A stretch of 64,000 nucleotides of DNA, from positions 366,477-430,476 of the forward strand of contig CAKPGL010000001.1 of the NCBI GenBank assembly GCA_934154785.1, given 5' to 3'. Origin of the DNA: an uncultured Bacilli bacterium (lineage in GTDB: Bacteria; Bacillota_I; Bacilli_A; RF39; UBA660). Both the position numbers and the translations under genes were made by a program. The notes under the pieces are model-generated. The model was not told the DNA's origin and did no database searches. It worked only from the letters and a program-made list of their open reading frames with translations. Positions 16,393-49,752 of this stretch are shown here, one piece after another. Every line of letters starts with the position of its first letter. Position 1 is the first letter of the stretch.

Positions 16393-16980
16393 ATGGAAAA
16401 CAATGATAAGAAGTTTAGAGCTTTAGCGATAGCTGCTATATGTATTGCAATAGTTGGTATTTCAATTGCGTATGCTGCATTAGGTGCTGTATTAAATGTA
16501 ACAGGTACTGCTACTGTTAGTACAGCAAACTCTTGGAATGTTGCGGCAACACAAGGTAGTTGTACTAAAACTGCTGGTAGTCCAAGTGTTACTAAAAATT
16601 TAACTACTGTTGGTCAAACTGCTACTTGGTCAGCTTCATTTGTTGCTCCGGGGGATCAAATAACTTGTACATTTGATTGGACAAATTCTGGTAGTATCGA
16701 CGCAGCAGTTACAAATTTAGTTGTTAATGCTAGTGGCGACGCAAAAGATTATTTTACTTATAATGTTACAATGGGAACTACAGCTTTAAGTGCAGTTGTG
16801 CCTAAAAACAAATATTTAAAAGCTGGTAGTACAAAAACTGTTACTATGGTAGTTACATTTGATGAAAATAGCAACTTAACAAGTCAACAATTAGCTGACC
16901 TTGATACAAAATCTGCAACATTTACAGCTGCTTTTGAATTTGAACAAGCAGATAGTAGTATTACTTATACCGAATTATAA
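16393..16980 (+). CDS. TasA/camelysin-like secreted protein with a SipW-type signal peptide (paralog 1)
   Basis: Basic N-terminus, a hydrophobic segment and VAYA|ALGAVLNVTGTATV. It is immediately upstream of a SipW-like peptidase. Conserved C-terminus ATFTAAFEFEQADSSITYTEL. Confidence 0.5.
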   Translation: MENNDKKFRALAIAAICIAIVGISIAYAALGAVLNVTGTATVSTANSWNVAATQGSCTKTAGSPSVTKNLTTVGQTATWSASFVAPGDQITCTFDWTNSGSIDAAVTNLVVNASGDAKDYFTYNVTMGTTALSAVVPKNKYLKAGSTKTVTMVVTFDENSNLTSQQLADLDTKSATFTAAFEFEQADSSITYTEL

Positions 16981-17069
16981 TAGTTAAAAATTGTGATAGT
17001 CGCTCGCGTTATTATAACCTTTTTAACGTCCATATACAGATATTGATATTATAGATAAGGAAGAAAAAT

Positions 17070-17666
17070 ATGGGAAAAGATAGAAAATTTAGAACATTAG
17101 CTATTGCTGCAATTTGTGTAGCTATAGTTGGCGTATCAGTTGCATACGCAGCATTAAGCGCAGCATTAAATGTAACAGGTACTGCTACTGTTGATACAGC
17201 AGGTTCTTGGAATGTTACTCCTACACCTGTAAAATGTACAGCAAAAAATGGAGCATATTTCATAACAGGAGAAGAACATGTAACTACTAAAGATTTTACT
17301 GCAGTAGGTGGAACTGTTAATTGGGATGCAACATTTACAGCACCAAAACAATCAGTAACTTGTACATTTAGTTGGACTAACGGTGGTTCAATTGATGCTG
17401 CTGTTAAAAAATTAGTTGCTACAGTTAATGGAACTCAAGCTGCTAATTTTGATTACACAGTTACAATGGGAAATACAAAATTAACTCCAACTACACCTAA
17501 TAATAAGGTTTTAAAAGCTGGTAGTACAAAAAATGTTACAATGACAGTTATCTTTGATAAAGATGGTAAACTTGAAACATTACCTACAACAGAAGAAACT
17601 GCAACATTTACAGCTGCTTTTGAATTTGCACAAGCAGATAGTAGTGTAACTTATACTGAATTATAA
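17070..17666 (+). CDS. TasA/camelysin-like secreted protein with a SipW-type signal peptide (paralog 2)
   Basis: Same N-terminal motif (KFRTLAIAAICVAIVGVSVAYAALSAALNVTGTATV) and the same C-terminal ~22 aa as paralogs 1 and 3. Confidence 0.5.
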   Translation: MGKDRKFRTLAIAAICVAIVGVSVAYAALSAALNVTGTATVDTAGSWNVTPTPVKCTAKNGAYFITGEEHVTTKDFTAVGGTVNWDATFTAPKQSVTCTFSWTNGGSIDAAVKKLVATVNGTQAANFDYTVTMGNTKLTPTTPNNKVLKAGSTKNVTMTVIFDKDGKLETLPTTEETATFTAAFEFAQADSSVTYTEL

Positions 17667-17684
17667 AAAATAGGAGATATTAAA

Positions 17685-18284
17685 ATGGAAAAAGATAGAA
17701 AATTTAGAGCATTAGCAATTGCTGCAATTTGTGTAGCAGTAGTTGGTGTATCAGTTGCATATGCTGCATTAGGTGCTGCATTAAATGTAACAGGTACTGC
17801 TACTGTTAGTACTAAAGATTCTTGGAATGTAGTCGCTACAAATGCTACTTGTAGAGCTACAGGACAAGCATATTTCTTAGGAACAGATGACCAACATTTA
17901 ACAGAAAAAGTATTTAATGTTGATGGAACTTCATTAACTTGGGATGCAACATTTACCGCACCAAAAGATGCTGTAACTTGTACATTTACTTGGACTAATG
18001 GTGGTTCAATTGATGCTGCTGTTAAAAAATTAGTTGCTGATAAATCAGGAACTCAAGCTGCTAATTTTACTTATGATATTAAAATTGGTGATACTGCTAT
18101 TACTACAGAAAATATAACTGGTAAATACTTAAAAGCTAAAACTTCAAAAGAAGTTACAATTGTTGTTACTTTTGATAAAGATGGTAATCTTACAACATTA
18201 CCTACAACAAAAGAAACTGCAACATTTACAGCTGCTTTTGAATTTGCGCAAGCAGATAGTAGTACAACTTATACAGAATTATAA
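17685..18284 (+). CDS. TasA/camelysin-like secreted protein with a SipW-type signal peptide (paralog 3)
   Basis: Same conserved N- and C-termini. The central ~100 aa diverge between the paralogs. Confidence 0.5.
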   Translation: MEKDRKFRALAIAAICVAVVGVSVAYAALGAALNVTGTATVSTKDSWNVVATNATCRATGQAYFLGTDDQHLTEKVFNVDGTSLTWDATFTAPKDAVTCTFTWTNGGSIDAAVKKLVADKSGTQAANFTYDIKIGDTAITTENITGKYLKAKTSKEVTIVVTFDKDGNLTTLPTTKETATFTAAFEFAQADSSTTYTEL

Positions 18285-18300
18285 TATTAAAGGGATGTGT

Positions 18301-18324
18301 GAGCAAAAGGAAATCCTTTTGCTC
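18301..18324 (+). promoter_or_regulatory. stem-loop between the subunit genes and the peptidase gene; possible partial terminator or attenuator
   Basis: gagcaaaagg-aaat-ccttttgctc, a 10-bp stem with no downstream T-run. Confidence 0.3.
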
Positions 18325-18370
18325 TCATATCGATTATGTATTTAATACAAGAATATTAAAGGGTGATAAA

Positions 18371-19528
18371 ATGATGATGAGATTAAAAAAAATCTTTAAT
18401 AAAGCATATCTAATGCAATTTTTAATAGTTATCATGGTTTTATTTAATATTTTTGTATTAAATACGTATAGACTAAATACTTGGTATCCAACATTATATT
18501 GGGTTGCTTTAGCAATTATTTCTTATTTGATATTTGGATTAAGGAATAGGGTTCCATCCAAATTTATTGATGTTATACAACTTGTATTTATTTATTGTAT
18601 GGGATATGAACTTATTACTTATCTTTCTGGGTTGATACTGGGGTTTGTAAGAAGTCCTTATTCAATGCAAATAGTAACAATGATTAAAAATATAGCACCA
18701 TTTTTGGTTATGATCATTGCACAAGAAATAACAAGATATGCTGTAGTTACTAGATATAAAAAAAATAAGTATGTTCTGGTATCAATAACGATAGCGATAA
18801 TCTTATATGAAATATCTTATAGTATTGGTTCATATGATTTAAAGTCAGCAGCTGAGATCGTAAAGATGTTAACTATATTGGTTGGTGGCTCAATAACAAA
18901 AAACTGCTTGTGCTCTTATCTTGTATATAGAGCTGACTATAAACCGTCTATTTTATATAGATGTGTATTTGAACTTATTATTTATGTAGTACCTATATAT
19001 CCAAATTTAGGAGAATATATAGAAGCTATGGTAGCTATGATATTTCCAGTATTGCTTTTAGTTTCTATAATGGGATTATACGAGAAAAAGAAATATCGTA
19101 AAGAAAAGAAAACTTGGTTTGAGATGGTTGTTTTGTGGATTCCATCAATTATTGTAATGCTATTTATAGTGACATTACAAACAGGAGTATTTAAGTATAA
19201 AACAATGGCAATTGGTTCTCAATCAATGTATCCTAATATTAATAAGGGTGATGTTGTAGTAATAGATCAGTTCAAAGATGAGGAAAGATGCAAAGAAGTA
19301 GTTGAAGGGGAAGTTTTGGTATTTAAACATGATGGTATTATTATAGTTCACAGGGTTGTTAAAATAACTAAAAAGAATAATAGGTATATATTTAATACCA
19401 AAGGTGATAATAATAATGCTAAAGATTCTTATGATATAGATCAGTCACAGGTAGTTGGAGTTGCCAAGTTTAGAATTCCATTCATTGGTGGTCCATCCGT
19501 TTGGTTGAGTGAAACAATTAACGGTTAG
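18371..19528 (+). CDS. ER/archaeal-type (SipW-like, S26B) signal peptidase I domain fused to an N-terminal ~300-aa polytopic membrane domain of unknown function
   Basis: C-terminal ~110 aa carry GSQSMYP (catalytic Ser), IIVHRVV (His) and TKGDNNNAKDSYD (the GDNN motif typical of SipW/Sec11-type peptidases). The N-terminal part has about 8 hydrophobic helices. Start taken at MMMRLKK after a GGGTGA RBS. Confidence 0.65.
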   Translation: MMMRLKKIFNKAYLMQFLIVIMVLFNIFVLNTYRLNTWYPTLYWVALAIISYLIFGLRNRVPSKFIDVIQLVFIYCMGYELITYLSGLILGFVRSPYSMQIVTMIKNIAPFLVMIIAQEITRYAVVTRYKKNKYVLVSITIAIILYEISYSIGSYDLKSAAEIVKMLTILVGGSITKNCLCSYLVYRADYKPSILYRCVFELIIYVVPIYPNLGEYIEAMVAMIFPVLLLVSIMGLYEKKKYRKEKKTWFEMVVLWIPSIIVMLFIVTLQTGVFKYKTMAIGSQSMYPNINKGDVVVIDQFKDEERCKEVVEGEVLVFKHDGIIIVHRVVKITKKNNRYIFNTKGDNNNAKDSYDIDQSQVVGVAKFRIPFIGGPSVWLSETING

Positions 19529-19542
19529 AAAGGAATGTATTT

Positions 19543-20709
19543 ATGAGTAATGGTAAAGAAAAGAGTTTAAATACTGAAGAGCAAGAAAAAGTTATAATGA
19601 TTAATGATAATAAGAATGATAAGAATAAAAGTAAACTTAATAAGAGAATTTATATAGATACTCCACTTAGGATATTTGTATTAGCTGGTTTTGTATTTAT
19701 ATTTGCTTTTCTTTCATTAATATTTTTGAAAAAAGGATTGGAAACAAAAACATATACTAGTATTTATTATAGTGAAAAAAGTAATCTAGATTATAAGGTT
19801 TACCTAAAAGAGAATCCTTATTTCAATGAACCTTTTCTTACTAAAGGTAATCAGTATATAGCAAGTTTGATTAATTATATTGATGCGGATTTTAGTTATG
19901 ATTTTAGTGCATCTAATTTAATTGATTACCAATTTCGTTATTTAATTAAAGCTGATGTTACAGTCTATGAAAAAGGAGATACATCTAAGATACTTTATAA
20001 GTCATCTGATACTTTACTTCCAGAAAAAACAGTTCAATACTCTGGAGCAAGTACTTACTCTATTAGAGAGAATGTAAAAATAGATTATGATAAATATAAC
20101 AATATTGTATCATCATTTAAGAGGGATTACTCTTTAGCATTAGAGAGTCAATTAAAGGTTACATTATATGTATTTATGAATGGTACTTATAAAGAGATTA
20201 AACAACCATTATCATCTTCTCAAAATATGAGTTTAACTATTCCATTAACTGAACAAACAATTAATATTTCTATGAATTATAAGGAAGTTAATGATGCTAA
20301 CGTTGTTGAGGAATATTCAAATGTTGAAACAATAAATATTGTATTCTTTGTATTATTTGGTGTATCACTTATTGCTTCATTAGTATTAACTGTTAAATTA
20401 GTTAGATTCTTAAATAAAATTAAGACTAAAGGTACTGAGTATGATAGAATATTAGGAACAATTTTAAAAGATTATGAAGGTATAGTAGCACGTGTTAAAA
20501 AAGTTCCAGATTTTAGTGGTAGAACAGTTATTGAGTTAGAAACTTTTGATGAGATATTGGATATTAGTGAAAAACTAGATAAACCAATCCTATTCATAGA
20601 AATGCATAAACATCAAAAGAGTTGGTTTATAATTGTTAATCATAATGAAATATATAAATATTCTTTAAAACTAGTTGATGTTGATAAAGCTAGTAACGAA
20701 AAGAAATAA
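19543..20709 (+). CDS. bitopic membrane protein (hypothetical), a candidate accessory or anchor component of the fibre locus
   Basis: Charged N-terminus, a TM helix at about residues 45-65, a ~190-aa extracytoplasmic domain, a second TM helix (INIVFFVLFGVSLIASLVLTV), then a ~100-aa cytoplasmic tail. Last gene before a terminator. Confidence 0.4.
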   Translation: MSNGKEKSLNTEEQEKVIMINDNKNDKNKSKLNKRIYIDTPLRIFVLAGFVFIFAFLSLIFLKKGLETKTYTSIYYSEKSNLDYKVYLKENPYFNEPFLTKGNQYIASLINYIDADFSYDFSASNLIDYQFRYLIKADVTVYEKGDTSKILYKSSDTLLPEKTVQYSGASTYSIRENVKIDYDKYNNIVSSFKRDYSLALESQLKVTLYVFMNGTYKEIKQPLSSSQNMSLTIPLTEQTINISMNYKEVNDANVVEEYSNVETINIVFFVLFGVSLIASLVLTVKLVRFLNKIKTKGTEYDRILGTILKDYEGIVARVKKVPDFSGRTVIELETFDEILDISEKLDKPILFIEMHKHQKSWFIIVNHNEIYKYSLKLVDVDKASNEKK

Positions 20710-20712
20710 CAT

Positions 20713-20746
20713 AAGCATATGAAGCATAGTTTATATGCTTTTTGTT
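20713..20746 (+). terminator. rho-independent terminator
   Basis: aagcatat...atatgctt stem followed by a T-run. Confidence 0.5.
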
Positions 20747-20822
20747 TTATTATTGTGTAAAACAAAAATGTTTATCTTGTTATTAAAAGGTATTTTAGTG
20801 TATAATATCATTGAGGTTAAAT

Positions 20823-21455
20823 ATGGAAGATTTGTATAAATATGAAAAAGAATTATATAATAAAAATATAGAATATATTGGTGGTGTTGATGAAGTTGGT
20901 AGAGGTCCTTTAGTAGGACCAGTAGTTGCAGCTTGTGTCGTACTACCAAAAGACTTTGTATTAGAAGGATTAACTGATTCTAAAAAATTAAGTGAGAAAA
21001 AAAGAGATTTATTTTATGAATATATTAATGAGCATTCCTTAGCGTGGGATGTTGGTATAATAGGACCAGAAATAATTGATGAGGTTAATATATATGCTGC
21101 AACTAAACTGGCTATGAAAGAAGCTATTAATAAAGTAAGAAAAAAAATAAATGTTGAACATGTATTAATAGATGCTATGCCACTTGAAATTGATATTCCA
21201 ACGACATCAATTATAAAAGGTGATGCAAAAAGTATTTCTATTGCGGCAGCAAGTGTTATGGCAAAAGTAACTAGAGATAGAATGATGTACGAGTTAGATA
21301 AAAAGTATCCAGAGTATGGTTTTGGTTCTCATAAAGGTTATCCTACTAAAAAACATGTAGAAGCTATAAAAAAATATGGTTTAATAGATGGTTATAGAAA
21401 GTCTTATGGTCCTGTAAAAGAAATATTGGAGGGTGAAATTAATGCAACAAAATAG
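20823..21455 (+). CDS. rnhB: ribonuclease HII
   Basis: GVDEVGRGPLVGPVV and the DDSKKLSEKKR motif. Start taken at the ATG after a GAGG RBS; the ORF track starts at an upstream TTG. Confidence 0.85.
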   Translation: MEDLYKYEKELYNKNIEYIGGVDEVGRGPLVGPVVAACVVLPKDFVLEGLTDSKKLSEKKRDLFYEYINEHSLAWDVGIIGPEIIDEVNIYAATKLAMKEAINKVRKKINVEHVLIDAMPLEIDIPTTSIIKGDAKSISIAAASVMAKVTRDRMMYELDKKYPEYGFGSHKGYPTKKHVEAIKKYGLIDGYRKSYGPVKEILEGEINATK

Positions 21456-21693
21456 TTTTCAAAAAAACGGTTTATTAAATGTAAATCCCTCACCAAATAA
21501 TACTTACAATACTGGTAATTTTGGAAGAAGAAGTATACAAGATATAAAAGATGATATGTATAAGGCTAAAACTAAGAATTTTTCTAATTCTAATATGAAT
21601 GATAATAAACAGCCTACTAATTTAAATAATCTTGGTCAAAACGATCATCGGCAAAGAGTAGAAAATTTACAAAACTTTAATAGATGGAAGTGA
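21442..21693 (+). CDS. N/Q-rich low-complexity protein (hypothetical)
   Basis: ORF with a GGAGGGTGA RBS that overlaps the rnhB 3' end. Compositionally biased. Confidence 0.3.
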   Translation: MQQNSFQKNGLLNVNPSPNNTYNTGNFGRRSIQDIKDDMYKAKTKNFSNSNMNDNKQPTNLNNLGQNDHRQRVENLQNFNRWK

Positions 21694-21697
21694 TTAT

Positions 21698-22432
21698 ATG
21701 TTTGATATTTTTAAAAAGAAAAATCAGCCTACTAATGAGTCTGTTCCCCAAAATGACTTTTTAAGTAATGAAAATGCAGCTTTTAATACTGTTTCAAGTG
21801 AAGACGATTCATTTAAGGATTCTCCAGATTATCAAAGTTTAGTGTATCAAGAGCCTGTATATAATGTACCTAAATATAAAGCTAGTAATTTAAGTAATAT
21901 AGGTGTTGTTGTTAATAGTACAGATGTAGGCTTTGATAAAAATGCTATTAACCCTAATATAAAAACTATAGATATACCAAGTAATGAACAAGAAGAATTA
22001 AATAAATCTATAAAAACAGAAGAGCCAGTTGAGTTATTAGATATATTTTCACCTGCAGATGTAGAAAAAGAAGATGTTATACCAGATGTTTTAAATAATA
22101 ATATAAATGATAATATAAATAATAACTCAAATAGTGAAGAAATTAAAAATAGTATTCAAACTGAGAATAAAGAAAAAGAAAAAAATAGCAGTATTTTTAT
22201 GAATAATAACAATGAAGCTATTGGCATTTCTATATTTGGTTCTAATGATGGCGTAACAAACAAGAATAATTATACTTCAAGCAATCAATTTGAAGAACAA
22301 AAACAGGAGTTAACAAAAGAAGTAGAGTATACTAGTGATGGTAATAAGATATGTCCAAATTGTGGTGCAATACTTAAACCTGATGCCCCAGTATGTTTTA
22401 TGTGTAGTAAAAGTTTTATTTTAAAAAAATAA
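21698..22432 (+). CDS. N-rich low-complexity protein with a C-terminal zinc ribbon
   Basis: Ends with CPNCGAILKPDAPVCFMCS (a CxxC...CxxC motif). Good RBS. Confidence 0.4.
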   Translation: MFDIFKKKNQPTNESVPQNDFLSNENAAFNTVSSEDDSFKDSPDYQSLVYQEPVYNVPKYKASNLSNIGVVVNSTDVGFDKNAINPNIKTIDIPSNEQEELNKSIKTEEPVELLDIFSPADVEKEDVIPDVLNNNINDNINNNSNSEEIKNSIQTENKEKEKNSSIFMNNNNEAIGISIFGSNDGVTNKNNYTSSNQFEEQKQELTKEVEYTSDGNKICPNCGAILKPDAPVCFMCSKSFILKK

Positions 22433-22592
22433 TATTTCACTAAAACTTCAATAGATTATCACATTCGTATATTACAATTAATATGTCGGAGGTGATAGAT
22501 GATATATTAATAAAAACAAAGACATTATAAAACAATAAAAACGTACACTCCTTACTATACTAAAAAACTTACCTTAAAATAAAATATAAATT

Positions 22593-22620
22593 AAAGAAAC
22601 AGCTCCCTGTTTCTTTTCTG
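22593..22620 (+). terminator. rho-independent terminator
   Basis: aaagaaacag-ctcc-ctgtttcttt, a 10-bp stem with T-rich 3' flank. Confidence 0.55.
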
Positions 22621-22718
22621 TTTAATAGAGTTATCTATAGATGTTTATAATTTATTTTATAAAAATATTTTTATTGCTAAAAAGCATTTTATAATATATA
22701 ATTGTTCTGGGTGATTTT

Positions 22719-24908
22719 ATGAAAAAACCAGAACTTTTAGCCCCGGCTGGTAGCATGGATAGTTTATATGCTGCAATTATGGCTGGTTGTGATGCTGTTT
22801 ATTTAAGTGGTTACATGTTTGGTGCTAGACAATTTGCTACTAACTTTTCTGAAGAAGAAATAAAAAGTGCTATAAATATTTGTCATTTATATGGTGTAAA
22901 AGTTTATGTAACTGTTAATACTTTAATTTATGACGCTGAAGTAGAAACATTTTTAAATTATATAGATTTTTTACATAAGAATAATGTTGATGCAGTATTA
23001 ATTCAAGATATAGGAATGTTAGATTTAGTAAGACAAACTTATCCTAATTTAGAAGTTCATGCTTCTACACAAATGCATATTCATAATATGGATGGCATTA
23101 AATTTTGTGAAAAAATGGGTATTAAAAGAGTTGTCTTAGCACGTGAAACTAGTATTGATAATATAAAAGATATTAGAGATAATACAGATTTAGAATTAGA
23201 AGTATTTGTTCATGGTGCTCTTTGTATTAGTTATTCTGGTCAATGTTTAATGAGTAGTTTAATTGGTGGTAGAAGTGGTAACCGTGGTGCTTGTGCTGGT
23301 AGTTGCAGGTTACCATATAAAATAGTTGATTCTAAGAATAAAAAATATAATAAAGATAATTATCCTATTAGTACTAAAGACCTTTCTACTTTAGATAATA
23401 TTGGTAAACTGATAGATGTAGGTGTAGATTCTTTAAAAATAGAAGGAAGAATGAAAAGACCAGAATATGTTTATTTAGTAGTTTCACTTTATAGAAAAGC
23501 AATTGATTCTTATATAAGTAACCATAAAGTTGATATTTCTCTTTCGGATATTAAAGAAATGAAAAAAATATTTAATCGTATGTTTACTAAAGGATTTTTA
23601 TTTAATGATGATAATGATAATATAGTTAATCCTTATCGCCCTAATCATTTAGGTATAGAAGTAGGTAAAGTTATTAATTATAAGAATAATCTTGTAACAG
23701 TAAAACTTAATGATACTTTATCTTTAAACGATGGTATAAGAATTATCGAAAGAGATTTAGGATGCACTTTAACTAGTATGTTTAATAATCATAAAAAGGT
23801 TATTACCGCAAAAAATGGAGATATTATCTCCTTTAAATTGGAAGGTAACATTAAAGTAGGAGATACCTTAGTTAAAACTACTGACTATAATCAACTTATA
23901 AATATTCAAAATATTATTAAAGAAAGTAAACGTAAAGTTTTAATAAATGGTAATATAACTATTAAAGCTAATAAACCTATAATATTAGAAGTAAGTGATG
24001 GTAAGAATATTATAACATTAGAAAAAGGAATTGCCTCTAAAGCAATTAATAATCCTCTTACAGAAGATGATATTAAAAAGCAAATAGATAGACTTGGTAA
24101 TACAATATATAAGTTTTCTTCTTTAACAATAGATACAGATAATAATTCTTTTATAAATAACAAAGATTTAAACAATATAAGAAGAGAAGTAATAGAACTT
24201 CTAAATAATAAAAGATTATATGATATTAACTATAAAAAATGTAATTACACCCGTAACATAGAAGTATTACCAGATAATAAAATAATGTGTACTTTAATAG
24301 ATAGTATGGATATGTATAATAAAATTAAAAATGATTCTTATAAATATATTTATATAGAAAATAAAAACTTATATAATGAATTAAAAAGTGATACTAGAGT
24401 AGTATTAAAACTACCTAGAGTTATAGAACATAGCACTTTACATGATGAACCTTTAATGATTAGTGAATTAGGTAGTCTTGCTAATAAAAATATAATAGTT
24501 TCAGATTTTTCTTTAAATGTTGTTAATTCTTATTCTGTTGCGTTACTACATAGTCTAGGTGTAAATAGAGTAACTTTATCTTATGAACTATCAAAAGAAC
24601 AAATAAAAACACTTATCAATAACTTTTATAAAAGATATAATGTTTATCCAAATCTAGAACTAATTGCGTATTCTAAAATAGAAACTATGGTAAGTAAATT
24701 TAATATCAATGATTATTATAAAACCAAAGAAAATTTATTTTTAGTAGATAAATTTAATAATCACTATATAATAAAAAATAGAAATGGTTATATGTATATA
24801 ATTGATTACAAAGACCATTTTATTACTGACTATAAAGAATACTATAATCTAGGTATTAATAGTATTAGATTTGAATTTGTTAATACTGATTATAGAAAGT
24901 TTAATTAA
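22719..24908 (+). CDS. U32-family peptidase-like protein (729 aa, with a C-terminal extension)
   Basis: Peptidase U32 signature EVFVHGALCISYSGQCLMSS. Confidence 0.8.
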   Translation: MKKPELLAPAGSMDSLYAAIMAGCDAVYLSGYMFGARQFATNFSEEEIKSAINICHLYGVKVYVTVNTLIYDAEVETFLNYIDFLHKNNVDAVLIQDIGMLDLVRQTYPNLEVHASTQMHIHNMDGIKFCEKMGIKRVVLARETSIDNIKDIRDNTDLELEVFVHGALCISYSGQCLMSSLIGGRSGNRGACAGSCRLPYKIVDSKNKKYNKDNYPISTKDLSTLDNIGKLIDVGVDSLKIEGRMKRPEYVYLVVSLYRKAIDSYISNHKVDISLSDIKEMKKIFNRMFTKGFLFNDDNDNIVNPYRPNHLGIEVGKVINYKNNLVTVKLNDTLSLNDGIRIIERDLGCTLTSMFNNHKKVITAKNGDIISFKLEGNIKVGDTLVKTTDYNQLINIQNIIKESKRKVLINGNITIKANKPIILEVSDGKNIITLEKGIASKAINNPLTEDDIKKQIDRLGNTIYKFSSLTIDTDNNSFINNKDLNNIRREVIELLNNKRLYDINYKKCNYTRNIEVLPDNKIMCTLIDSMDMYNKIKNDSYKYIYIENKNLYNELKSDTRVVLKLPRVIEHSTLHDEPLMISELGSLANKNIIVSDFSLNVVNSYSVALLHSLGVNRVTLSYELSKEQIKTLINNFYKRYNVYPNLELIAYSKIETMVSKFNINDYYKTKENLFLVDKFNNHYIIKNRNGYMYIIDYKDHFITDYKEYYNLGINSIRFEFVNTDYRKFN

Positions 24909-24932: not shown

Positions 24933-24993
24933 TTTAAAACACTTTTAATTTAATAAAAAAAAAGGTATAATTATGATAATGGAGAGGATATTT

Positions 24994-40463: not shown

Positions 40464-40464
40464 A

Positions 40465-41643: not shown

Positions 41644-43329
41644 ATGAACAAGAAATTAACAAAAACAATACTTAAAAACTGCAAGAAAGAGATTACTCTT
41701 GAATTCTTGGTATGTATAATACTTCGAGGAATATTACTTATAATTCCTATTTTATATAGTAACGCTATTAATTTTGCATCAATAACTTTATATGAAAAAG
41801 CTATTCACATGATAATAATATATGTAGTTGTTATAACTATTTATAAAGTTACTGAATATTTACGCCAAAGAACATTTTATAATTTATATAACAAAATGTA
41901 TAAAGAATATACTGTTAAAGCAGTAGAAAATACTTGTGCTAATTCTATATTTAGTTTATCAAGATTTACTACTGGGGAGTATATGAATATTTTAAATAGT
42001 GACATAGATACTATTTGTAGTTTTTTCTGCAATGCTGTATATAGAAGTGTTCAAATCTTAGAATTTGCATTTATATATTATTATTTTTATACTATCAGCT
42101 TGGAGTTATTTATTGTATCTGTTATATCTTCAATTATAGTTCTTTTGGGTATCTTATTATTTGGTAGACGTTTAGAAAAACTAAATAAAAAAAGAAAAGA
42201 TAGCTTAGATATAAAGACTGGTATTGTAAATGATATTTTTGTTGGTATAAAGGAAATAAAAGGTTTTAATATTTTAAACTTTGTTAGTAAAAAAGTAGAA
42301 ATTGGTGCTGATGAATATGTTAGTGCTAATGCTAAGTATAATAGAGAATATAATTTATCTAATATAATTGCTATATACATATTTGAAATAATACGTTTAG
42401 TAATGTTGATATATGGTATTTATATGATTAAAGATGGATATATGGAAATAGGTATTTTAATGATAATATATAGTTATTTCCAAAAAATAATTGATAACTT
42501 TACTTTAGTATCAACTGTTAATGTAGAATATCGTAGTTTAAATGTATCTTTAAAAAGATATAATAAGATAGTTGAATATGCTAGAAAGAGTATCGAAGAT
42601 GGTAAATTTATAGATAATAATGATACTAATGGCAAAATAGAATTTAAAAATATTTTATATGGATATAAGAATGACCCAGTATTAAAAGACTTTAATCTAA
42701 AGATAAGAGAACATTCTATTTATTCTATTACTGGTGTATCTGACAGTGGCAAAATGGGTATATTTGAATTATTATTAAAACTTAATCGTCAACATGAAGG
42801 TAATATATTAGTAGATAATAATGAAATATCTGAAATAAATGATGAAGCATATTATAAATTAATATCTTATGCTAGAAGTAATCCTATATTTTTTGATTGT
42901 AGTATTAGAGATAACTTAATGCTTGTTGAACCAGACTTTTCTAAAATAGAAAAAGTATGTAAAATGGTTAAGGTACATGATGATATTTTAAAATTAAAAG
43001 ATGGATATGACACAATAATTGGTACAGATTGTACAGTACTTTCATCTACAACAAAGAAATTATTATCAATAGCGAGAGTTATACTTAAAGATAGTCGTAT
43101 TTTATTATTTGATGAAATAATTGATTCATTAGATAAGACTAATAAAAAAAATATTATTAAAGTATTACAAAAATTAAGTGAAGAACATACAATTTTAATT
43201 ATTACTCGTGATAAGGGTATATTAAAATTATCTGATGAAATAATTCTACTTGATCAAGGAAAGGTAGAAGCAGTAGGTAGACATAACGAACTTATGGAAA
43301 CCAGTGATATTTATAAACAACTTTATTAA
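41644..43329 (+). CDS. ABC exporter-type half-transporter (TMD-NBD) with degenerate nucleotide-binding motifs
   Basis: Six N-terminal TM helices. Walker A reads GVSDSGKM (no Ser/Thr after the Lys). The signature position reads LSSTTKK instead of LSGGQ. Walker B is ILLFDE. GGAGG RBS. Confidence 0.55.
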   Translation: MNKKLTKTILKNCKKEITLEFLVCIILRGILLIIPILYSNAINFASITLYEKAIHMIIIYVVVITIYKVTEYLRQRTFYNLYNKMYKEYTVKAVENTCANSIFSLSRFTTGEYMNILNSDIDTICSFFCNAVYRSVQILEFAFIYYYFYTISLELFIVSVISSIIVLLGILLFGRRLEKLNKKRKDSLDIKTGIVNDIFVGIKEIKGFNILNFVSKKVEIGADEYVSANAKYNREYNLSNIIAIYIFEIIRLVMLIYGIYMIKDGYMEIGILMIIYSYFQKIIDNFTLVSTVNVEYRSLNVSLKRYNKIVEYARKSIEDGKFIDNNDTNGKIEFKNILYGYKNDPVLKDFNLKIREHSIYSITGVSDSGKMGIFELLLKLNRQHEGNILVDNNEISEINDEAYYKLISYARSNPIFFDCSIRDNLMLVEPDFSKIEKVCKMVKVHDDILKLKDGYDTIIGTDCTVLSSTTKKLLSIARVILKDSRILLFDEIIDSLDKTNKKNIIKVLQKLSEEHTILIITRDKGILKLSDEIILLDQGKVEAVGRHNELMETSDIYKQLY

Positions 43330-43449
43330 CGTAGGTTAAATATATTTACAAAAAGATAAAAGTTTTATATAATTGATATGTAATAAAAATAAGGGTAGTG
43401 ATAACATGACTAAAACTATTATAATAAATGATTTACAATTTGTTAACCA

Positions 43450-43458
43450 AGGGGGGGG
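43450..43458. repeat. G9 homopolymeric tract, about 115 bp upstream of the 43572 start codon
   Basis: A run of nine G in a genome of about 27% GC, lying between the ABC gene and the large secreted-protein gene. Confidence 0.9.
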
Positions 43459-43571
43459 GTTATAGTCATACCTTAGTAAATAATAAAGACACAAATAGCA
43501 GTTGGAGGTAAGCTCTAATTTGTTTTTTTGTGTCTTTTTGTTGTAATTAAATAAGGAAAGGAAGAATATCT

Positions 43572-45203
43572 ATGAAAGATAGAAATAAAAGAAAATTAAT
43601 AATATACGCTTTAGTTGGAGTATTGATGCTAACTACAGTTGCGTATGCATCATTACAAACAATATTAAATGTATCAGGTACCGTAGTAAAGAAAGGTAAC
43701 TTGTGGAATATATATTTTACTAATTCCAGTAGTGCTAGTATAGTAGGAACAGCAACAGGTAGTAGTTTAAATATACAAGCATCTAAATTAGATTTTTCAG
43801 TAAGTTTATATAAACCTAGAGATAAAGTAAGTTATACAGTAGATATAAAAAATGGAGGAACTATAGATGCCGTATTAAATAGTATATCCTTAACAGGATT
43901 AGATACTGCAAAAAGTAATAGTCTAAATTATACAGTAACATATTCTAATGGAAGTACTATAAAAGAGGGAGATACTTTAAATGCTGGATCAAGTAAGACA
44001 ATAAAGATAACAGTAGAGTTTGATAGTAGTGCGACTAGTTTACCAGAAAGTGATGTTAACTTAACATTTGGAGTAACCCTAATATATGGACAAACCACAA
44101 GTAGTAGTTCTACTGGAACTAGTGGAATAACAAGTAATAATGTTATTGCGGGAATATATGGGAATAGTACTCAAAATGGAACCCCAACGCCAACTAGTCC
44201 AGTAGAGATACAAAGTGTAGGTGAAAAAAGTACTAATTTAATTCCATTTAATTATACTTCGAGAACTAAAAATGGTGTTACTATTACAGTAAATAATGAT
44301 GGCTCATTAACTTATAATGGTACCGCTACAGCTAGCGTTTCATATGAATTGTTTAATGGAAAGATGTCATTGGTTGAAGGAAAAAAATATTATTTTTCAG
44401 ATTGCTACGCTCAGTTGAATGGTCAATCTGGAAATATTATGACAAATGGTTATACAGCTAAGTCTGGAGATTATATCAGTTTAATTTGGATTTGGAATGC
44501 ATCAGGAACAGTATTTGATAATGTCGTAAAAAAACCAATGATTTCTAATAATCAAATTACAAGTTCTAATTATGAACACCCGGGTTATAAAGTACCAATT
44601 ACAGCAAGTAATGGAAGTGATACTAAGACAACAAACATTTATTTAAAAGAACCATTACGTAAAATGGGAGATTCTGCCGATTACTTAGATTTAACAAATA
44701 AGAAAGTAGTAAGAAATGTAAAAGAGTATAAAATTACTGGTAAAGAACAATGGGCACTAGTTTGGACAACTGATACGACTACAATTTATAAATCAGAGTC
44801 ATTGTTTACTGATGCAAAACCTAATAGTAATAAAACAACTATAGGGACAAAGTCCAATAAATTGGGAGCTATTAGTTACGATGGTTATTCTGCTGGTGTT
44901 GCTTCTATGTGGCAAATAAGAAAAAATGACAATTACAAATATCAAGTAGCAATTAATTACTATAATAATTCTTGTGGTAGCCTTTTTATAAAAAATATAG
45001 ATTATAAATCAGATGTTTCAAACTTTAAGAAATGGTTAAGTGATCAATACGATAGTGGAGATCCCGTGTTAGTGGATTATATCTTAACAACACCAACCGA
45101 AGAAAGTGTAAATATACCAGAGCTACCAAGTCTTACCGGTAATGTAACATACAGTATAGGTACAAGTATAAAACCAAGTAGTATAAATTATACTACTAGA
45201 TAA
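43572..45203 (+). CDS. large secreted protein: SipW-type signal peptide, then a TasA-like N-terminal domain, a Ser/Thr-rich linker and the shared C-terminal module
   Basis: N-terminus KRKLIIYALVGVLMLTTVAYASLQTILNVSGTVV...WNIYF matches the signal motif of the three paralogs at 16.4-18.3 kb. Residues ~40-175 align with those paralogs (for example DIKNGGTIDAVLNS vs SWTNGGSIDAAVKK). The C-terminal ~330 aa are shared with the next gene. Confidence 0.55.
   Translation: MKDRNKRKLIIYALVGVLMLTTVAYASLQTILNVSGTVVKKGNLWNIYFTNSSSASIVGTATGSSLNIQASKLDFSVSLYKPRDKVSYTVDIKNGGTIDAVLNSISLTGLDTAKSNSLNYTVTYSNGSTIKEGDTLNAGSSKTIKITVEFDSSATSLPESDVNLTFGVTLIYGQTTSSSSTGTSGITSNNVIAGIYGNSTQNGTPTPTSPVEIQSVGEKSTNLIPFNYTSRTKNGVTITVNNDGSLTYNGTATASVSYELFNGKMSLVEGKKYYFSDCYAQLNGQSGNIMTNGYTAKSGDYISLIWIWNASGTVFDNVVKKPMISNNQITSSNYEHPGYKVPITASNGSDTKTTNIYLKEPLRKMGDSADYLDLTNKKVVRNVKEYKITGKEQWALVWTTDTTTIYKSESLFTDAKPNSNKTTIGTKSNKLGAISYDGYSAGVASMWQIRKNDNYKYQVAINYYNNSCGSLFIKNIDYKSDVSNFKKWLSDQYDSGDPVLVDYILTTPTEESVNIPELPSLTGNVTYSIGTSIKPSSINYTTR
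44173..44699. repeat. 527-bp direct repeat copy A (~95% identical to copy B; contains a ~230-bp stretch that differs at one base)
   Basis: Codes the shared module TPTPTSPVEIQSVGEKSTNLIPFNY...YLDLTN inside the 43572 gene. Confidence 0.85.
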
Positions 45204-45220
45204 TAGAAAGAAGTGATAAA

Positions 45221-46588
45221 TTGAAAAATAAAGGATTTACTTTAGTAGAACTACTAGCGGTGATAGTAGTTCTATCTATTATCGCTTTAATAGGATATTC
45301 TGCAGTAGGAAATGTAATAAGTTCTACACAAGATAATAGTAATAAGATAACTATGAAAAATTACGCTAAAGCGGTAGATCAAGCGGTGTTCTTATATGAA
45401 ATGAATAATAGTGATAGTAATTTATCAGAATTAAATGCAAACTGGCTAAAAGAAAATGTTAAATTTGAGAAAGCAACCGTAGAATGTGAATATGCAACAT
45501 ATGATAAAACAAGTAGTTTATATGGATGTAAAGTAAATGATAGTGATAAGACATATTGTTATATTAGTGATACAGCAGTTGAATGTAATAAAGATAAATT
45601 ATCTAAAATATATGGAGAAAGTATCCAAAATGGAACACCAACTCCAACTAGTCCAGTGGAGATACAAAGTGTTGGAGAAAAAAGTACTAATTTAATTCCA
45701 TTTAATTATATTTCGAGAACTAAAAATGGTGTTACTATTACAGTAAATAATGATGGCTCATTAACTTATAATGGTACCGCTACAGCTAGCGTTTCATATG
45801 AATTGTTTAATGGAAAGATGTCATTGGTTGAAGGAAAAAAATATTATTTTTCAGATTGCTACGCTCAGTTGAATGGTCAATCTGGAAATATTATGACAAA
45901 TGGTTATACGGCTAAGTCTGGGGATTATATCAGTTTAATTTGGATTTGGAATGAATCAGGTACAGTATTTGACAATGTAGTAAAAAAACCAATGATTTCT
46001 AATAATCAAATTACAAGTTCTAATTATGAACACCCGGGTTATAAAATACCAATTACCGTAAGTAATGGAACAGAAACAAAGACAACAAATATCTATTTAA
46101 AAGAACCATTACGTAAAATAGGAGAATATGCTGACTATTTAGATTTAACAAATGGTAAAGTAACAAGATATGTAACAGAAGTAGTATTTACAGGAAGTGA
46201 AACATGGAGTAAATATACAAGTGTAAGAAATCATTATCAAATAACTGTAAATAATAATTTTTTTGATATACAAAATAATTTAATTCTATCGAATTATTAT
46301 AATAACACTAATACTAAAATTAATTATTATTCGTCAGCAGATTATGATGTAATTTCTGCCGATGGCTATAGAATAAGATTTAAAAATAAAGATATTGAAA
46401 CTTTAGAAGAATGGGAAAATCATGTTTTAAATAAATATAATAGTGGGATACCAATAAAAGTAGTTTATGTATTAATGGCACCAACTGAAGAAAGCATAGA
46501 CGTACCAGAAATACCAAGTCTTACAGGTAATGTAACTTATAGTGTAGATACAAGTATAAAGTCTAGTAAAATGGAATATGGATATTAA
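45221..46588 (+). CDS. type IV pilin-like protein (class III prepilin signal) carrying the same C-terminal module
   Basis: TTG start. MKNKG|FTLVELLAVIVVLSIIALIG is a canonical prepilin peptidase site, with Glu at +5. The downstream ~330 aa are near-identical to the C-terminal part of the 43572 protein. Confidence 0.6.
   Translation: MKNKGFTLVELLAVIVVLSIIALIGYSAVGNVISSTQDNSNKITMKNYAKAVDQAVFLYEMNNSDSNLSELNANWLKENVKFEKATVECEYATYDKTSSLYGCKVNDSDKTYCYISDTAVECNKDKLSKIYGESIQNGTPTPTSPVEIQSVGEKSTNLIPFNYISRTKNGVTITVNNDGSLTYNGTATASVSYELFNGKMSLVEGKKYYFSDCYAQLNGQSGNIMTNGYTAKSGDYISLIWIWNESGTVFDNVVKKPMISNNQITSSNYEHPGYKIPITVSNGTETKTTNIYLKEPLRKIGEYADYLDLTNGKVTRYVTEVVFTGSETWSKYTSVRNHYQITVNNNFFDIQNNLILSNYYNNTNTKINYYSSADYDVISADGYRIRFKNKDIETLEEWENHVLNKYNSGIPIKVVYVLMAPTEESIDVPEIPSLTGNVTYSVDTSIKSSKMEYGY
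45626..46153. repeat. 527-bp direct repeat copy B
   Basis: See copy A. The offset between copies is about 1453 bp. Confidence 0.85.
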
Positions 46589-46600
46589 TTAATAGACTAG

Positions 46601-46628
46601 AAAGCTCTTTTGAAATAGAGCTTTTTTT
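46601..46628 (+). terminator. rho-independent terminator
   Basis: aaagctct-tttgaaat-agagcttt followed by T6. Confidence 0.6.
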
Positions 46629-46656
46629 GGTATAATATTATTAGTGAGATGGTTAT

Positions 46657-49113
46657 ATGAAAAAAAATAAGAATATTTCTATATTATTAATTATAGGTTT
46701 AATACTTTGTTTAATTTCTATTTTTAGTGGAAAGTTATTTGGTTCTAATGTCGATTGGATAAATCAACATGTTACTTTTGCCAATTATTTTCGAAATAAT
46801 TTTTATAAAACAGGTAAACTTTTACCCGATATAGCATGGAATTTAGGATTAGGACAAAATATATATAATTTTTCTTATTATGGATTATTAAATCCTATTA
46901 TTCTTATTTCTTATTTACTTCCTTTTATTTCTATGACTAATTATATAATGATTAGTAATATTATTTTATATTTACTAAGTATATACTTATTTTATAAATG
47001 GGTTAGTCCAAAATATAGTAGTAAACTATCACTATTATTAACCACTATATTCATGCTTAGTGGACCATTATTTTACCAATTTCATCGTCAAATAATGTTT
47101 GTAAATTATATGCCATTTTTACTTTTGAGTTTAATAGAAATAGATAAAAATAGAAAGAGTAGTTTATTTTTACTAACTATATATATTACTTTAATAATAT
47201 TAAGTAGTTACTATTATAGTGTAGGAGCTATACTATGCATAATAATTTATTATATATTTGTTCATTTTAATGATAGTATTCATGAAAAGTTAAAAATATT
47301 TATTCCTATTATAATTAGTGCTTTGTTATCAGGCATATTAATTATTCCAACTATTGATACTATTATAAGTGGTAGAAATGATATTAAAACTAGTATCAAT
47401 TTGTTAAATTTATTTATTCCTAACTTTGCAATTGGTAAAGTTATATATGGTTCTTATACCTTAGGAATTACTGCAATAATTATACCTAGTTTAGTTAGTT
47501 TATTAGTAAGTAAGGATAAAAAAAATAAATATTTAGGAGCGATTTTGTCAATACTTATTATATTTCCTATTTTTAGATATTTACTAAATGGTTGTTTATA
47601 TATTCGTAGTAAGGCTTTAATACCATTTTTACCATTATATATATATGGAATAGGTATATTTATAAAAGATTGTATTAATAAAGACGTAGATTATAAGTTA
47701 GTAATAAAAGTAACTTTAATAATTGCTTTATTAGGTTTAATTACAGGTTACTTTAATCTAGGATATTATTTAGATATAATTCTTTCTATAATTATCTTGA
47801 TGCTATTTATAAGTGATAAAAAAATATTATCTGGTTTCATAATTATTATCGAAATTCTTGCTATGTTTGTTGCATTTAATATTGATGAAAAATATGTAGA
47901 TAAAAGTGAGTATAATTCTTGGAATTTATACCAAGAAGAGTTAAGCAAGGTTATAGAAAATGATAGGTCTATTTATAGAATATCTGATGTACTAGAACCT
48001 ATTAACAATATTAATTATATTGGAGTTAATAATTATTATAAGGCTTCTTTATATTCATCTACTTATAATTATTACTATTATAATTTTTATCATAATACTT
48101 TAAATGCTAATAATATAACTTATAATCATCTTATGTTAGCGGATACTACAAATTTAATTATGAACCGTTTATTAGGAATAAAGTATATTGTAAGTAATGA
48201 GAAGTTAAATTTTGGATATAGTTTGTTAAGCAACAAAGATAATTTTTATTTATATAAGAATGATTATGCTTTACCTTTAGGTTACGCAACTAATAGAGTA
48301 TATAATAAAGATAGTTTTGCATCATTAAATTATCCTTATAATTTAGAAGTATTACTAACAGGAATAGTTACTGATAATTATACAAATTTTAATTTGGAAT
48401 ATACAAAAGTTCTTGATACTAAATATAATATAACTTTAGGAGATAATATTAGTGTTAGTAATAATGATGATTTTAGTATAGTTCAAGTATTAAAAGATTC
48501 TAGTATAAATTTGTCTTTTAATGAAGTAATTGCCAATAAATTATTATTTATAGAAATTAGTGGATTAGAAGAAAATAGCTGTAATACAGAACTTAGTATT
48601 GAAATAAATGGTGTTAAAAATAAATTAACATGTAAAGAATGGGGGTACCCTAATAAAAATAATACATTTCATTTTTTAGTTAGTGATGATGATATTTCTT
48701 CTTTAAATATTAATATTTCTAAAGGAATTTATAAAATAACAGATTTAAAATTATATACAATGGATAAAGATGTTCTTAATAAAGAATTTGATTTAATGGA
48801 AGATATTCAAATTAATGATAATAAACTAATTGGTAATATTAATGTTACCGATGATGGTTATATGGTTTTATCTATTCCATATGATAAAAACTTTATTGTA
48901 AAAATAGATGACAATGTTGTAGATTATGAATTAGTTAATTCAGGATTTGTTGGCTTTAAAATAAATAAAGGAAATCACAACATTGAACTAACTTATGTAA
49001 ATAGCAAAAAAACTTTAGGTATAATTAGTAGTTCAATCGGTTTATTATGTTTATTTATTTTAATTATTTTTAATTTAAAAAATTATAAATCAATTGACAT
49101 TTTAAAACAATAA
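46657..49113 (+). CDS. YfhO-family GT-C fold membrane glycosyltransferase
   Basis: N-terminal region SGKLFGSNVDWINQHVTFANYF...NLGLGQNIYNFSYYGLLNP matches the YfhO family (B. subtilis YfhO-like). About 13 TM helices plus a large C-terminal extracytoplasmic domain. Confidence 0.75.
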   Translation: MKKNKNISILLIIGLILCLISIFSGKLFGSNVDWINQHVTFANYFRNNFYKTGKLLPDIAWNLGLGQNIYNFSYYGLLNPIILISYLLPFISMTNYIMISNIILYLLSIYLFYKWVSPKYSSKLSLLLTTIFMLSGPLFYQFHRQIMFVNYMPFLLLSLIEIDKNRKSSLFLLTIYITLIILSSYYYSVGAILCIIIYYIFVHFNDSIHEKLKIFIPIIISALLSGILIIPTIDTIISGRNDIKTSINLLNLFIPNFAIGKVIYGSYTLGITAIIIPSLVSLLVSKDKKNKYLGAILSILIIFPIFRYLLNGCLYIRSKALIPFLPLYIYGIGIFIKDCINKDVDYKLVIKVTLIIALLGLITGYFNLGYYLDIILSIIILMLFISDKKILSGFIIIIEILAMFVAFNIDEKYVDKSEYNSWNLYQEELSKVIENDRSIYRISDVLEPINNINYIGVNNYYKASLYSSTYNYYYYNFYHNTLNANNITYNHLMLADTTNLIMNRLLGIKYIVSNEKLNFGYSLLSNKDNFYLYKNDYALPLGYATNRVYNKDSFASLNYPYNLEVLLTGIVTDNYTNFNLEYTKVLDTKYNITLGDNISVSNNDDFSIVQVLKDSSINLSFNEVIANKLLFIEISGLEENSCNTELSIEINGVKNKLTCKEWGYPNKNNTFHFLVSDDDISSLNINISKGIYKITDLKLYTMDKDVLNKEFDLMEDIQINDNKLIGNINVTDDGYMVLSIPYDKNFIVKIDDNVVDYELVNSGFVGFKINKGNHNIELTYVNSKKTLGIISSSIGLLCLFILIIFNLKNYKSIDILKQ

Positions 49114-49149
49114 TTATATACTTTTTATAGAGTAGAAAGTGGGATAAAT

Positions 49150-49752
49150 ATGAGAAGAAGAAGTGAAAATAGTCGTGAAAATAAAAGATATATTAGAGAA
49201 TTAATAATTATGGCTCTTTTAGTTACTATAATTGGTTTAACTGTGTCTTATGTTGCAGCAAGTACAGCCTTTAATATTGTTGGTATTTCAAATGTTAGAA
49301 CGGCAGATTGGAATGTTGGCTTTTCTTCTGCTAAAGTTGTAGCAAAGACAGGTGATGTCAATATAATAAATGATCCTAAGATATCAGGTCAAACTATTAA
49401 TTATGAAGTTGGATTAAAAAATGAAGGCGATAGTGTCACGATTGAAGCTATAGTAAAAAACTATGGAAATTTAGATGCTAAATTAAATTCTTACGTCATT
49501 ACAGGAATTACTAGTAATTATCAAAATAATGTTAGTTACAAGATAACTGATAAAAATGGTAGTGAATTAAAAGAAAACACTATTTTGAAAAGTGCGGAAG
49601 CTGATTATAATCAAAATATAATGCCAATATACATCACAATTACTTATGATAAATTCATATATGAAGATGTAGCGGGCACTATTTCATTTAACTTAGGTTT
49701 AAGTCTTAACTTTGTTCAAAATTGTACTACTTGTAATACAAATTTTAGCTAA
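49150..49752 (+). CDS. small TasA-like secreted protein with a SipW-type signal peptide (fifth member of the family in this window)
   Basis: N-terminus RELIIMALLVTIIGLTVSYVAASTAFNIVGISNVRTADWNVGF has the same motif. 200 aa. Confidence 0.45.
   Translation: MRRRSENSRENKRYIRELIIMALLVTIIGLTVSYVAASTAFNIVGISNVRTADWNVGFSSAKVVAKTGDVNIINDPKISGQTINYEVGLKNEGDSVTIEAIVKNYGNLDAKLNSYVITGITSNYQNNVSYKITDKNGSELKENTILKSAEADYNQNIMPIYITITYDKFIYEDVAGTISFNLGLSLNFVQNCTTCNTNFS

Follow-up and report, generated by a model that had tools for sequence, protein, structure and literature searches.

Paralogous putative extracellular-fibre subunits and an adjacent multi-pass signal peptidase in an uncultured Bacilli bacterium

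Five paralogous genes with a common N-terminal motif

The DNA analysed here, called the window throughout, is a stretch of 64,000 nucleotides from contig CAKPGL010000001.1 of an uncultured Bacilli bacterium, with a guanine plus cytosine (GC) content of 26%. It holds five open reading frames (ORFs), at 16393, 17070, 17685, 43572 and 49150, whose products begin with the same N-terminal motif, all as described in the initial annotation of this DNA. The first three lie in tandem and are followed by genes for a signal peptidase and a DUF5305 membrane protein; the other two form a distal locus. The genes, with matches to hidden Markov models (HMMs) of the N-terminus and of the core domain where these are given, are as follows (aa, amino acids; ER, endoplasmic reticulum).

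16393..16980, + strand: putative fibre subunit paralog 1, 195 aa, with predicted signal peptide, donor-strand-like N-terminal extension and beta-sandwich core
17070..17666, + strand: putative fibre subunit paralog 2, 198 aa, with an AlphaFold 2 (AF2) model; the family profile matches AbpX
17685..18284, + strand: putative fibre subunit paralog 3, 199 aa; N-terminal HMM E 2.3e-30, core HMM E 9.7e-46
18371..19528, + strand: archaeal/ER-type signal peptidase I by its match to TIGR02228, 385 aa from the ATG at 18371, with a multi-pass N-terminal membrane domain
19543..20709, + strand: DUF5305 protein (PF17231, E 9.4e-13), 388 aa, putative signal-peptidase accessory subunit
43572..45203, + strand: long family member, 543 aa, candidate tip or adhesin subunit; N-terminal HMM E 1.3e-19, core HMM E 1.9e-32
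49150..49752, + strand: divergent family member, 200 aa, candidate minor subunit or anchor; N-terminal HMM E 3.2e-21, core HMM E 7e-32

All five proteins are built to one N-terminal plan, in which a basic n-region leads into a hydrophobic stretch ending in (V/I)AYA(A/S)L and then into (L/F)N(V/I)xG...WN(V/I). The stretch runs out as ...SIAYAAL GAV in paralog 1 (LNVTGTATVSTANSWNV), ...SVAYAAL SAA in paralog 2 (LNVTGTATVDTAGSWNV), ...SVAYAAL GAA in paralog 3 (LNVTGTATVSTKDSWNV) and ...TVAYASL QTI in the 43572 protein (LNVSGTVVKKGNLWNI); the 49150 protein has the variant VSYVAAS (...TVSYVAAS TAF; NIVGISNVRTADWNV). Because the spacing from G to W is one residue shorter in the 43572 protein than in the other four, a strict regular expression matches four ORFs and a loose one all five. 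A six-frame scan of the window with these expressions found the motif nowhere else, and the five matches to the loose expression compare with a mean of 0.055 and a maximum of 1 in 200 shuffles. The N-terminus and core-domain HMMs each match exactly the same five of the 335 stop-to-stop segments in the window, the former with E values from 1e-19 to 2e-30. For paralog 1 the two values are 5e-28 and 1.4e-50, and there is a weak match to Peptidase_M73/TasA (E 0.05-0.09). The initial annotation was therefore right that the motif marks five proteins in two loci, and by expression and HMM alike these are its only carriers in the window.

What the annotation appears to have overlooked is that the similarity does not stop at the motif. 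The five proteins align along the entire N-terminal domain of ~190 aa, with N98, G100, D103 and A104 (N-x-G-x-x-D-A) and other residues invariant (numbering here and below follows paralog 2, the 17070 protein, which is also the reference for the structure model). They are homologous paralogs over a predicted beta-sandwich domain, not unrelated proteins with a common tag. Gene conversion was considered as the cause of N-terminal conservation in the three tandem genes and rejected: the fraction of identical codons is 0.68-0.82 in the first 45 codons and 0.60-0.87 in the gene middles, so a recent event fails to explain the N-terminal pattern. The last 25 codons have 91-95% identical codons and 90-94% DNA identity, above the rest of the genes. 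These 3' ends, which encode ...ATFTAAFEFAQADSSxTYTEL (window 16915-16931, 17601-17617 and 18219-18235), suggest local homogenisation or a constrained C-terminal strand.

Anatomy of the motif and extent of the family

The motif is composed of three parts: a Sec signal peptide ending in A-Y-A|A, an amphipathic N-terminal strand (L33-x-I35-x-G37-x-A39-x-V41) and W-N-V, the first strand of the core. In paralog 2 the first two are placed as follows.

17070..17150, + strand: predicted Sec signal peptide, residues 1-27 (MGKDRKFRTLAIAAICVAIVGVSVAYA), with a basic n-region, a 16-aa h-region and Ala at -3 and -1
17151..17198, + strand: predicted donor strand or N-terminal extension of the mature protein, residues 28-43 (ALSAALNVTGTATVDT), placed by its residue alternation and by alignment with AbpX

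Conservation was counted over 124 homologs. Position -1 is Ala in 120 of them, -3 is Ala or Gly in 122 and -2 is Tyr or Phe in all 124; paralog 2 is predicted to be cleaved between A27 and A28. The architecture is the standard n-h-c arrangement with Ala at -3 and -1, and the description of the signal as non-canonical is not supported. Downstream, L33, I35, G37, A39 and V41 alternate with polar residues across the homologs, which is the signature of an amphipathic beta-strand, and W47-x-V49-x-F51 forms the first core strand. An AF2 model of the 17070 monomer (mean predicted local distance difference test score, pLDDT, 82.9) has a helix at residues 3-29, low-confidence coil at 30-48 and then a beta-sandwich; the predicted donor strand (28-43) is unstructured in it. 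A Foldseek search of the PDB with this model returned only weak, generic matches to Ig-like or appendage domains.

Three other signal classes were considered for the five proteins and set aside. As type IV pilins (class III signal) they would need G|F/M-x-x-x-E, which they lack together with any match to PF07963 or TIGR02532, models that the neighbouring 45221 product does match. As lipoproteins they would need a lipobox, [LVI][ASTVI][GAS]C, closing the h-region; Cys16 is preceded by A-A-I in mid-helix, and the 43572 and 49150 signals have no Cys. No twin-arginine, as in a twin-arginine translocation (Tat) signal, precedes the h-region in any of them.

The helix could instead stay uncleaved; the products would then be pilin-like subunits that retain it, or surface proteins anchored in the membrane and bearing an Ig-like ectodomain. 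In the close clade the h-region shows striking conservation, with a near-invariant Cys16, the model draws residues 3-29 as a single helix, and Val occupies the aligned -1 position of the 49150 protein, whose variant c-region is VSYVAA|S. The near-universal small residues at -1 and -3 speak for cleavage, however, as do the missing G|F-x-x-x-E prepilin motif, which the 45221 neighbour has along with its N_methyl match, and the missing lipobox, Cys16 following Ile and being absent from two of the five signals. A catalytically intact peptidase, moreover, is always adjacent at related peptidase loci. We regard retention of the helix as very improbable.

The motif had also been said to differ from the signal of TasA and CalY. 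The SipW-cognate signal model TIGR04088 (NCBIfam) indeed matches none of the five proteins at E<=1. The difference is not complete, since the aromatic residue at -2 is common to both: the TasA site, T-W-A|A-F, has an aromatic -2, Ala at -1 and Ala at +1, as in A-Y-A|A-L here.

Outside the window, a word-seeded search with the 17070 protein, which is biased towards proteins sharing N-terminal words, gave 54 homologs, none with a Pfam domain, nearly invariant over residues 1-45 and ~40% identical over the remainder. Within the clade of the three tandem genes, the proteins have a pairwise identity of 66% over residues 28-43, 32% in the core and 84% over residues 1-27, this last value being inflated because such a search favours proteins that share the N-terminus. 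On account of that bias two complementary searches were made. A core-only profile brought in more distant members, whose h-regions are variable and which retain (A/G)-(Y/F)-A-x-(L/I)...L-x-I-x-G-x-(A/G)-x-V...W-x-V. A 50-position profile of the N-terminus alone, run exhaustively against 1.84 billion cluster representatives (clusters at 50% identity), matched 2,393 clusters at E<=1e-3 and 190 at E<=1e-10. Among the best 150 of the 2,393 the match starts within the first ~25 residues, and at residues 1-10 in all but one. The core domain was also present in 122 of the 136 new matches examined; the 14 others comprise 13 fragments of less than 100 aa and one protein of 140 aa that is probably partial (P0199; P-numbers denote homolog proteins). 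What the motif represents is therefore the N-terminus of a single large family of homologs, not a portable tag. A scan of contigs with back-translated patterns yielded only 4 loci, since the patterns came from the most conserved h-region.

Neither Pfam nor NCBIfam assigns the five proteins to a family, the sub-threshold matches being to CARDB, Peptidase_M73/camelysin and TasA; distant homologs give marginal matches to DUF7507 and to HYDIN/VesB Ig-like models, and no homolog bears a name in its source annotation.

These searches bear on the proposal that the motif defines a lineage-specific sorting class, that is, a self-contained non-canonical signal on unrelated passengers, read by a dedicated peptidase in the manner of sortase and exosortase tags. 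In its favour, conservation in the tandem-gene clade is much higher over the signal peptide than over the core (84% against 32%), the C-terminal extensions of the long members (255-607 aa) are diverse and mostly mutually unrelated, and the large additional membrane domain of the peptidase, in which the polar residues E119 and R122 are invariant, could serve to bind a signal. Yet the motif was never seen on another N-terminal domain, the same core following directly in those 122 of 136 matches, and half of it aligns with the mature donor strand of AbpX. The conservation figure is subject to the seeding bias just described, the core-seeded matches have variable h-regions, and at one related locus a paralog with a different h-region adjoins a closely related peptidase. 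We think a sorting tag quite unlikely. LNVTGTATV...WNV would instead belong to the mature protein of a single homologous domain family, as its N-terminal extension and its first beta-strand, and that family is not confined to this genome; the scan with the N-terminal HMM, of the kind that the annotation had suggested, turned up many more members. The simplest reading of an N-terminus that is conserved beyond the core is strong constraint on the segment used in processing and assembly, while the exposed core evolves fast, as it does in pilins and flagellins. No new type of sorting signal is revealed.

The clearest relationship of the family is to AbpX ('archaeal bundling protein X'). When the family profiles were compared with all PDB sequences, AbpX was matched at E 2.5e-4 and 1.5e-4 (9sj2_C) and at E 2.4e-3 and 1.3e-3 (9rhp_A). 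A preprint of January 2026 (10.64898/2026.01.04.697558) places AbpX in the TasA superfamily, describes its polymerisation through donor-strand complementation and reports that the first ~16 residues of the mature monomer lack structure. In the HMM alignment its donor-strand residues 4-12 fall on family positions 31-39, so that AbpX mature residue 1 corresponds to A28, the predicted +1 residue. Taking this with the homology among the five proteins, we consider it probable that they are paralogous subunits of an extracellular fibre, members of the TasA superfamily closest to the AbpX type, and that the motif is an ordinary signal peptide followed by a subunit-linking strand, with a dedicated peptidase encoded alongside.

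The signal peptidase, its gene order and the distal genes

The gene at 18371-19528, read from the ATG that its homologs use, encodes a protein that scores 87.9 bits against TIGR02228 (cut-off 51.85) and 68.7 bits against NF046067, for which the cut-off is 190; it is not a SipW ortholog. Ser285-Met, His327-Arg328, Asp346 and Asp352 are invariant in 52 homologs, as are Gly87, Gly91, Glu119 and Arg122 in the membrane domain, where Y84 and P208 are near-invariant. An AF2 model (pLDDT 87.5) has nine transmembrane (TM) helices followed by the catalytic domain, and its best PDB match is human SEC11C (7p2q_A, E 5e-6). By these sequence and model comparisons the product is an archaeal/ER-type (SEC11/SipW-type) signal peptidase I with a Ser/His rather than a Ser/Lys pair. 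Searches with tblastn, using this peptidase and a B. subtilis SipS sequence, found no other signal peptidase in the window, and the statement that only the first locus encodes a SipW-type enzyme holds, provided that it is read as SipW-like. In Foldseek the extra 8-helix membrane domain (residues 1-256; window 18371-19140, + strand) resembles the CAAX protease Rce1 only weakly (4cad, E 0.15, probability 0.8-0.9). The domain is probably not an active CPBP protease, because no conserved His was seen in the 52 homologs. The DUF5305 protein has two TM segments by hydropathy, at ~44-62 and ~263-285, in keeping with the description in the preprint (10.64898/2026.01.04.697558).

Gene order ties this enzyme to the family. 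Loci of related genomes (L-numbers) were gathered from family members (L001, L002, L004, L005/L006 and L007) and, reciprocally, from distant peptidase homologs (L014, L015 and L016). The co-occurrence with the fused peptidase gene to which the initial annotation had pointed was found throughout: all eight independent loci with a homologous multi-TM peptidase have one to four family genes immediately upstream and DUF5305 immediately downstream. The first locus of the window, with three subunits, peptidase and DUF5305, has the same layout and corresponds to the AbpX-type locus of the preprint (10.64898/2026.01.04.697558). A peptidase of this type dedicated to, and genetically coupled with, this protein family is thus supported. 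At L001 a paralog with a different h-region adjoins a 74%-identical peptidase, so the enzyme needs no single exact h-region. Some related loci hold extra large secreted proteins near the peptidase and DUF5305 genes, one of 695 aa with Laminin_G_3 (L005:12885-14972) and one of 303 aa with a faint CBM_2 match (L016:7088-7999); these may be further fibre-associated adhesins.

Whether one enzyme acts in trans on all five proteins, as the annotation proposed, is a separate matter from its dedication to the family. Family genes without a peptidase within 8-10 kb recur: L003, L004:4100, three copies in L008, and 43572 and 49150 in the window. L009 and L010 likewise hold family genes that stand alone, at a distance from such a peptidase. 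Processing in trans is therefore a reasonable inference, and action of the 18371 peptidase on the 43572 and 49150 products is plausible. The alternative is that a housekeeping LepB-type signal peptidase I encoded elsewhere does the cutting, the peptidase of the locus serving the adjacent genes only, or having a part in assembly rather than in general processing, and the distal proteins not being its substrates. An A-x-A at -3/-1 would suit any type I signal peptidase, and the distal genes lie 24-30 kb away with promoter-like sites of their own. Promoter and terminator scans were uninformative here, such sites occurring at or below shuffle expectation in DNA of 26% GC. The second-best structural match of the peptidase model, moreover, is SipA (4n31, E 1.5e-3), a signal-peptidase homologue required for pilus polymerisation in S. 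pyogenes. Unlike the inactive SipA-type protein, however, the window peptidase has its catalytic Ser285 and His327 invariant in the 52 homologs; the solo genes of related genomes keep the c-region and the donor strand; and dedicated peptidases have precedent in the TasA, AbpX and Tafi systems. On balance a housekeeping enzyme is unlikely to be responsible.

Under the fibre reading, each subunit would carry a Sec signal with a K/R-rich n-region, an h-region of ~16 residues and a c-region of the form (V/I)-(A/S)-Y-A, and would be cut after A-Y-A by the 18371-19528 peptidase, probably with the aid of the DUF5305 membrane protein (19543-20709). The new N-terminus, A-L-S-A-x-L-N-(V/I)-T-G-T-A-T-V, would form an amphipathic strand, disordered in the monomer, and is predicted to polymerise the fibre by donor-strand complementation, each such strand entering the beta-sandwich of the following subunit; W-N-(V/I) would open the core domain as its first strand. 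The products of the three tandem genes would be major-subunit paralogs, the 43572 protein (543 aa) would be a subunit bearing a C-terminal cargo or adhesin domain, and the 49150 protein a divergent minor subunit. This gives a concrete prediction of both the cleavage site and the donor strand. A more speculative extension, which we think doubtful, is that the ~250-residue, 8-helix membrane domain with its invariant E119 and R122 is a substrate-selecting module that binds the conserved signal peptide of the major subunits within the membrane and so makes the enzyme a substrate-dedicated signal peptidase, that with DUF5305 it couples cleavage to fibre assembly, and that this enzyme serves the dispersed subunits in trans. 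Were it true, this family of more than 2,000 clusters, for which there is no Pfam or NCBIfam model, would be a widespread unannotated fibre system of uncultured low-GC Bacillota.

The 43572 protein consists of the signal, the donor strand, a core that extends to about residue 180 and a C-terminal extension of ~350 aa. Searches with that extension found nothing informative, only a PHROG of unknown function (E 2e-3) and spurious PDB matches to Rab11. The next gene (45221-46588, + strand) encodes a type IV pilin-like protein with a KGFTLVE leader (N_methyl, E 1.6e-7). Its C-terminal ~330 residues are 64% identical to the 43572 extension; the same cargo domain thus sits on two different fibre-type N-termini. 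In further strains of this organism (L012:4355-7439 and L013:4430-7439, against window 43572-46588) the two C-terminal cassettes are mosaic. Residues 323-540 of the window 43572 protein are 96% identical to the C-terminal part of the L012 pilin-like gene, against ~79% identity overall to the L012 ortholog itself, and the pilin-like gene is split in L012 and has a frameshifted leader in L013. The paralogous cassettes may thus have recombined, or phase variation may be at work.

Between this pair and 49150 lies a gene for a YfhO-family membrane protein (46657-49113, + strand; E 2e-51), weakly similar to the Streptococcus protein-glycosylation glycosyltransferases PgfM1/PgfM2. Since the fibre proteins contain 18-28% Ser+Thr, their glycosylation is conceivable from sequence. 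The 49150 protein has a long basic n-region and orthologs in P0175, P0176 and P0279; it is indexed in 49 blocks of the sequence collection. It is followed by a T-box leader (49799-49981, + strand; 113 bits) upstream of pheS/pheT (49955-53441), and two tRNA genes are found at 63711-63860. Sporulation-associated families, YlbD_coat for example, occur among the neighbouring genes. A 20.6-kb locus (L011; ENA ERZ28615273 scaffold_24, 269,595 nt) is 99.97% identical to window 39150-59752, and the closest named relatives are metagenome-assembled genomes labelled 'uncultured Bacilli bacterium'.

Comparison with known fibre systems

Several observations weigh against placing these proteins beside AbpX and TasA. 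The position aligned with the aromatic residue 2 of AbpX (29) is L in 97, M in 14, F in 6 and I in 4 of the 124 homologs. That aligned with the acidic residue 4 (31) is Q in 46, T in 43, A in 16, R in 8 and E in 7, and A or T in the window proteins. The mature proteins contain 7.8-11.0% D+E, with a pI of 4.4-5.1 for four and 8.6 for 43572, and a comparison by hhalign with a TasA sequence gave a local match of just 28 columns at 43% probability. In the profile search of the PDB, TasA (5of1, 8aur) appeared only at non-significant E values of 0.44-1.3.

In the chaperone-usher pili of Gram-negative bacteria, too, a subunit contributes an N-terminal extension, with a central glycine and hydrophobic residues at alternate positions, to complete the fold of the one that follows it; these pili belong to an unrelated fold family, the window locus has no chaperone or usher, and the organism here is of Gram-positive type. 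The haloarchaeal Tat-fimbriae (Tafi) and the archaeal bundling pili (AbpA, Sulfolobus threads) are donor-strand-complemented filaments of the TasA superfamily, and their loci can hold a signal peptidase I, DUF5305 and tip and anchor proteins. Tafi subunits are archaeal and use the Tat pathway, whereas the window proteins have no twin-arginine, and no direct sequence match to these filaments was seen. Besides the AbpX preprint, DUF5305 is discussed only for the Tafi filaments.

TasA/TapA/SipW of B. subtilis offers a secreted beta-sandwich subunit with a PGD...F..N.G(S/T) motif, found in the local hhalign match to TasA, and a dedicated ER-type signal peptidase in the operon. TasA fibres assemble by donor-strand exchange (PDB 8aur), and assembly is predicted to proceed likewise here. 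The five window proteins reach only 12.2 bits against a TasA equivalog cut-off of 450, in addition to their lack of a TIGR04088 match. SipW has two TM helices against ~9 in the window peptidase, which falls well short of the 190-bit SipW equivalog cut-off (NF046067), and the place that TapA occupies in the TasA operon is taken by DUF5305 in the window locus.

The AbpX-type loci, known from Pyrodictium abyssi AbpX and its archaeal, Bacillota and Chloroflexota homologs (9sj2, 9rhp), are the closest. In all three groups these loci combine genes for tip proteins and minor subunits with those for a dedicated TIGR02228 signal peptidase I of ten TM helices and for DUF5305 as an accessory protein (10.64898/2026.01.04.697558). 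The window family shares with AbpX a profile similarity over donor strand and core that reaches E 1.5e-4, an N-terminal extension that is unstructured in the monomer, and a locus in which a multi-TM TIGR02228 peptidase and DUF5305 accompany several subunit paralogs and a longer member that is tip-like. It differs in four respects. In AbpX a conserved aromatic residue 2 and acidic residue 4 serve in clamping the strand and binding calcium, where the window family has L and Q/T/A; AbpX-like proteins are more acidic, with ~15% Asp+Glu and a pI of ~4 (10.64898/2026.01.04.697558); the peptidase of AbpX loci has ten TM helices against nine in the window model; and two of the window family members lie 24-30 kb from the peptidase locus. 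Lacking the aromatic and acidic residues and being less acidic, the window family is therefore a separate, so far unannotated clade of the TasA superfamily that uses AbpX-type machinery and is probably not calcium-dependent. The comparison extends that machinery, a multi-pass signal peptidase I with DUF5305, to uncultured Bacilli of very low GC, and it gives a likely function, as subunits of an extracellular matrix or adhesive fibre, to a family of at least 2,393 clusters that had no Pfam, NCBIfam or source annotation. It indicates too that subunit genes can be scattered in the genome, which bears on how biofilm and adhesion capacity is annotated in metagenome-assembled genomes.

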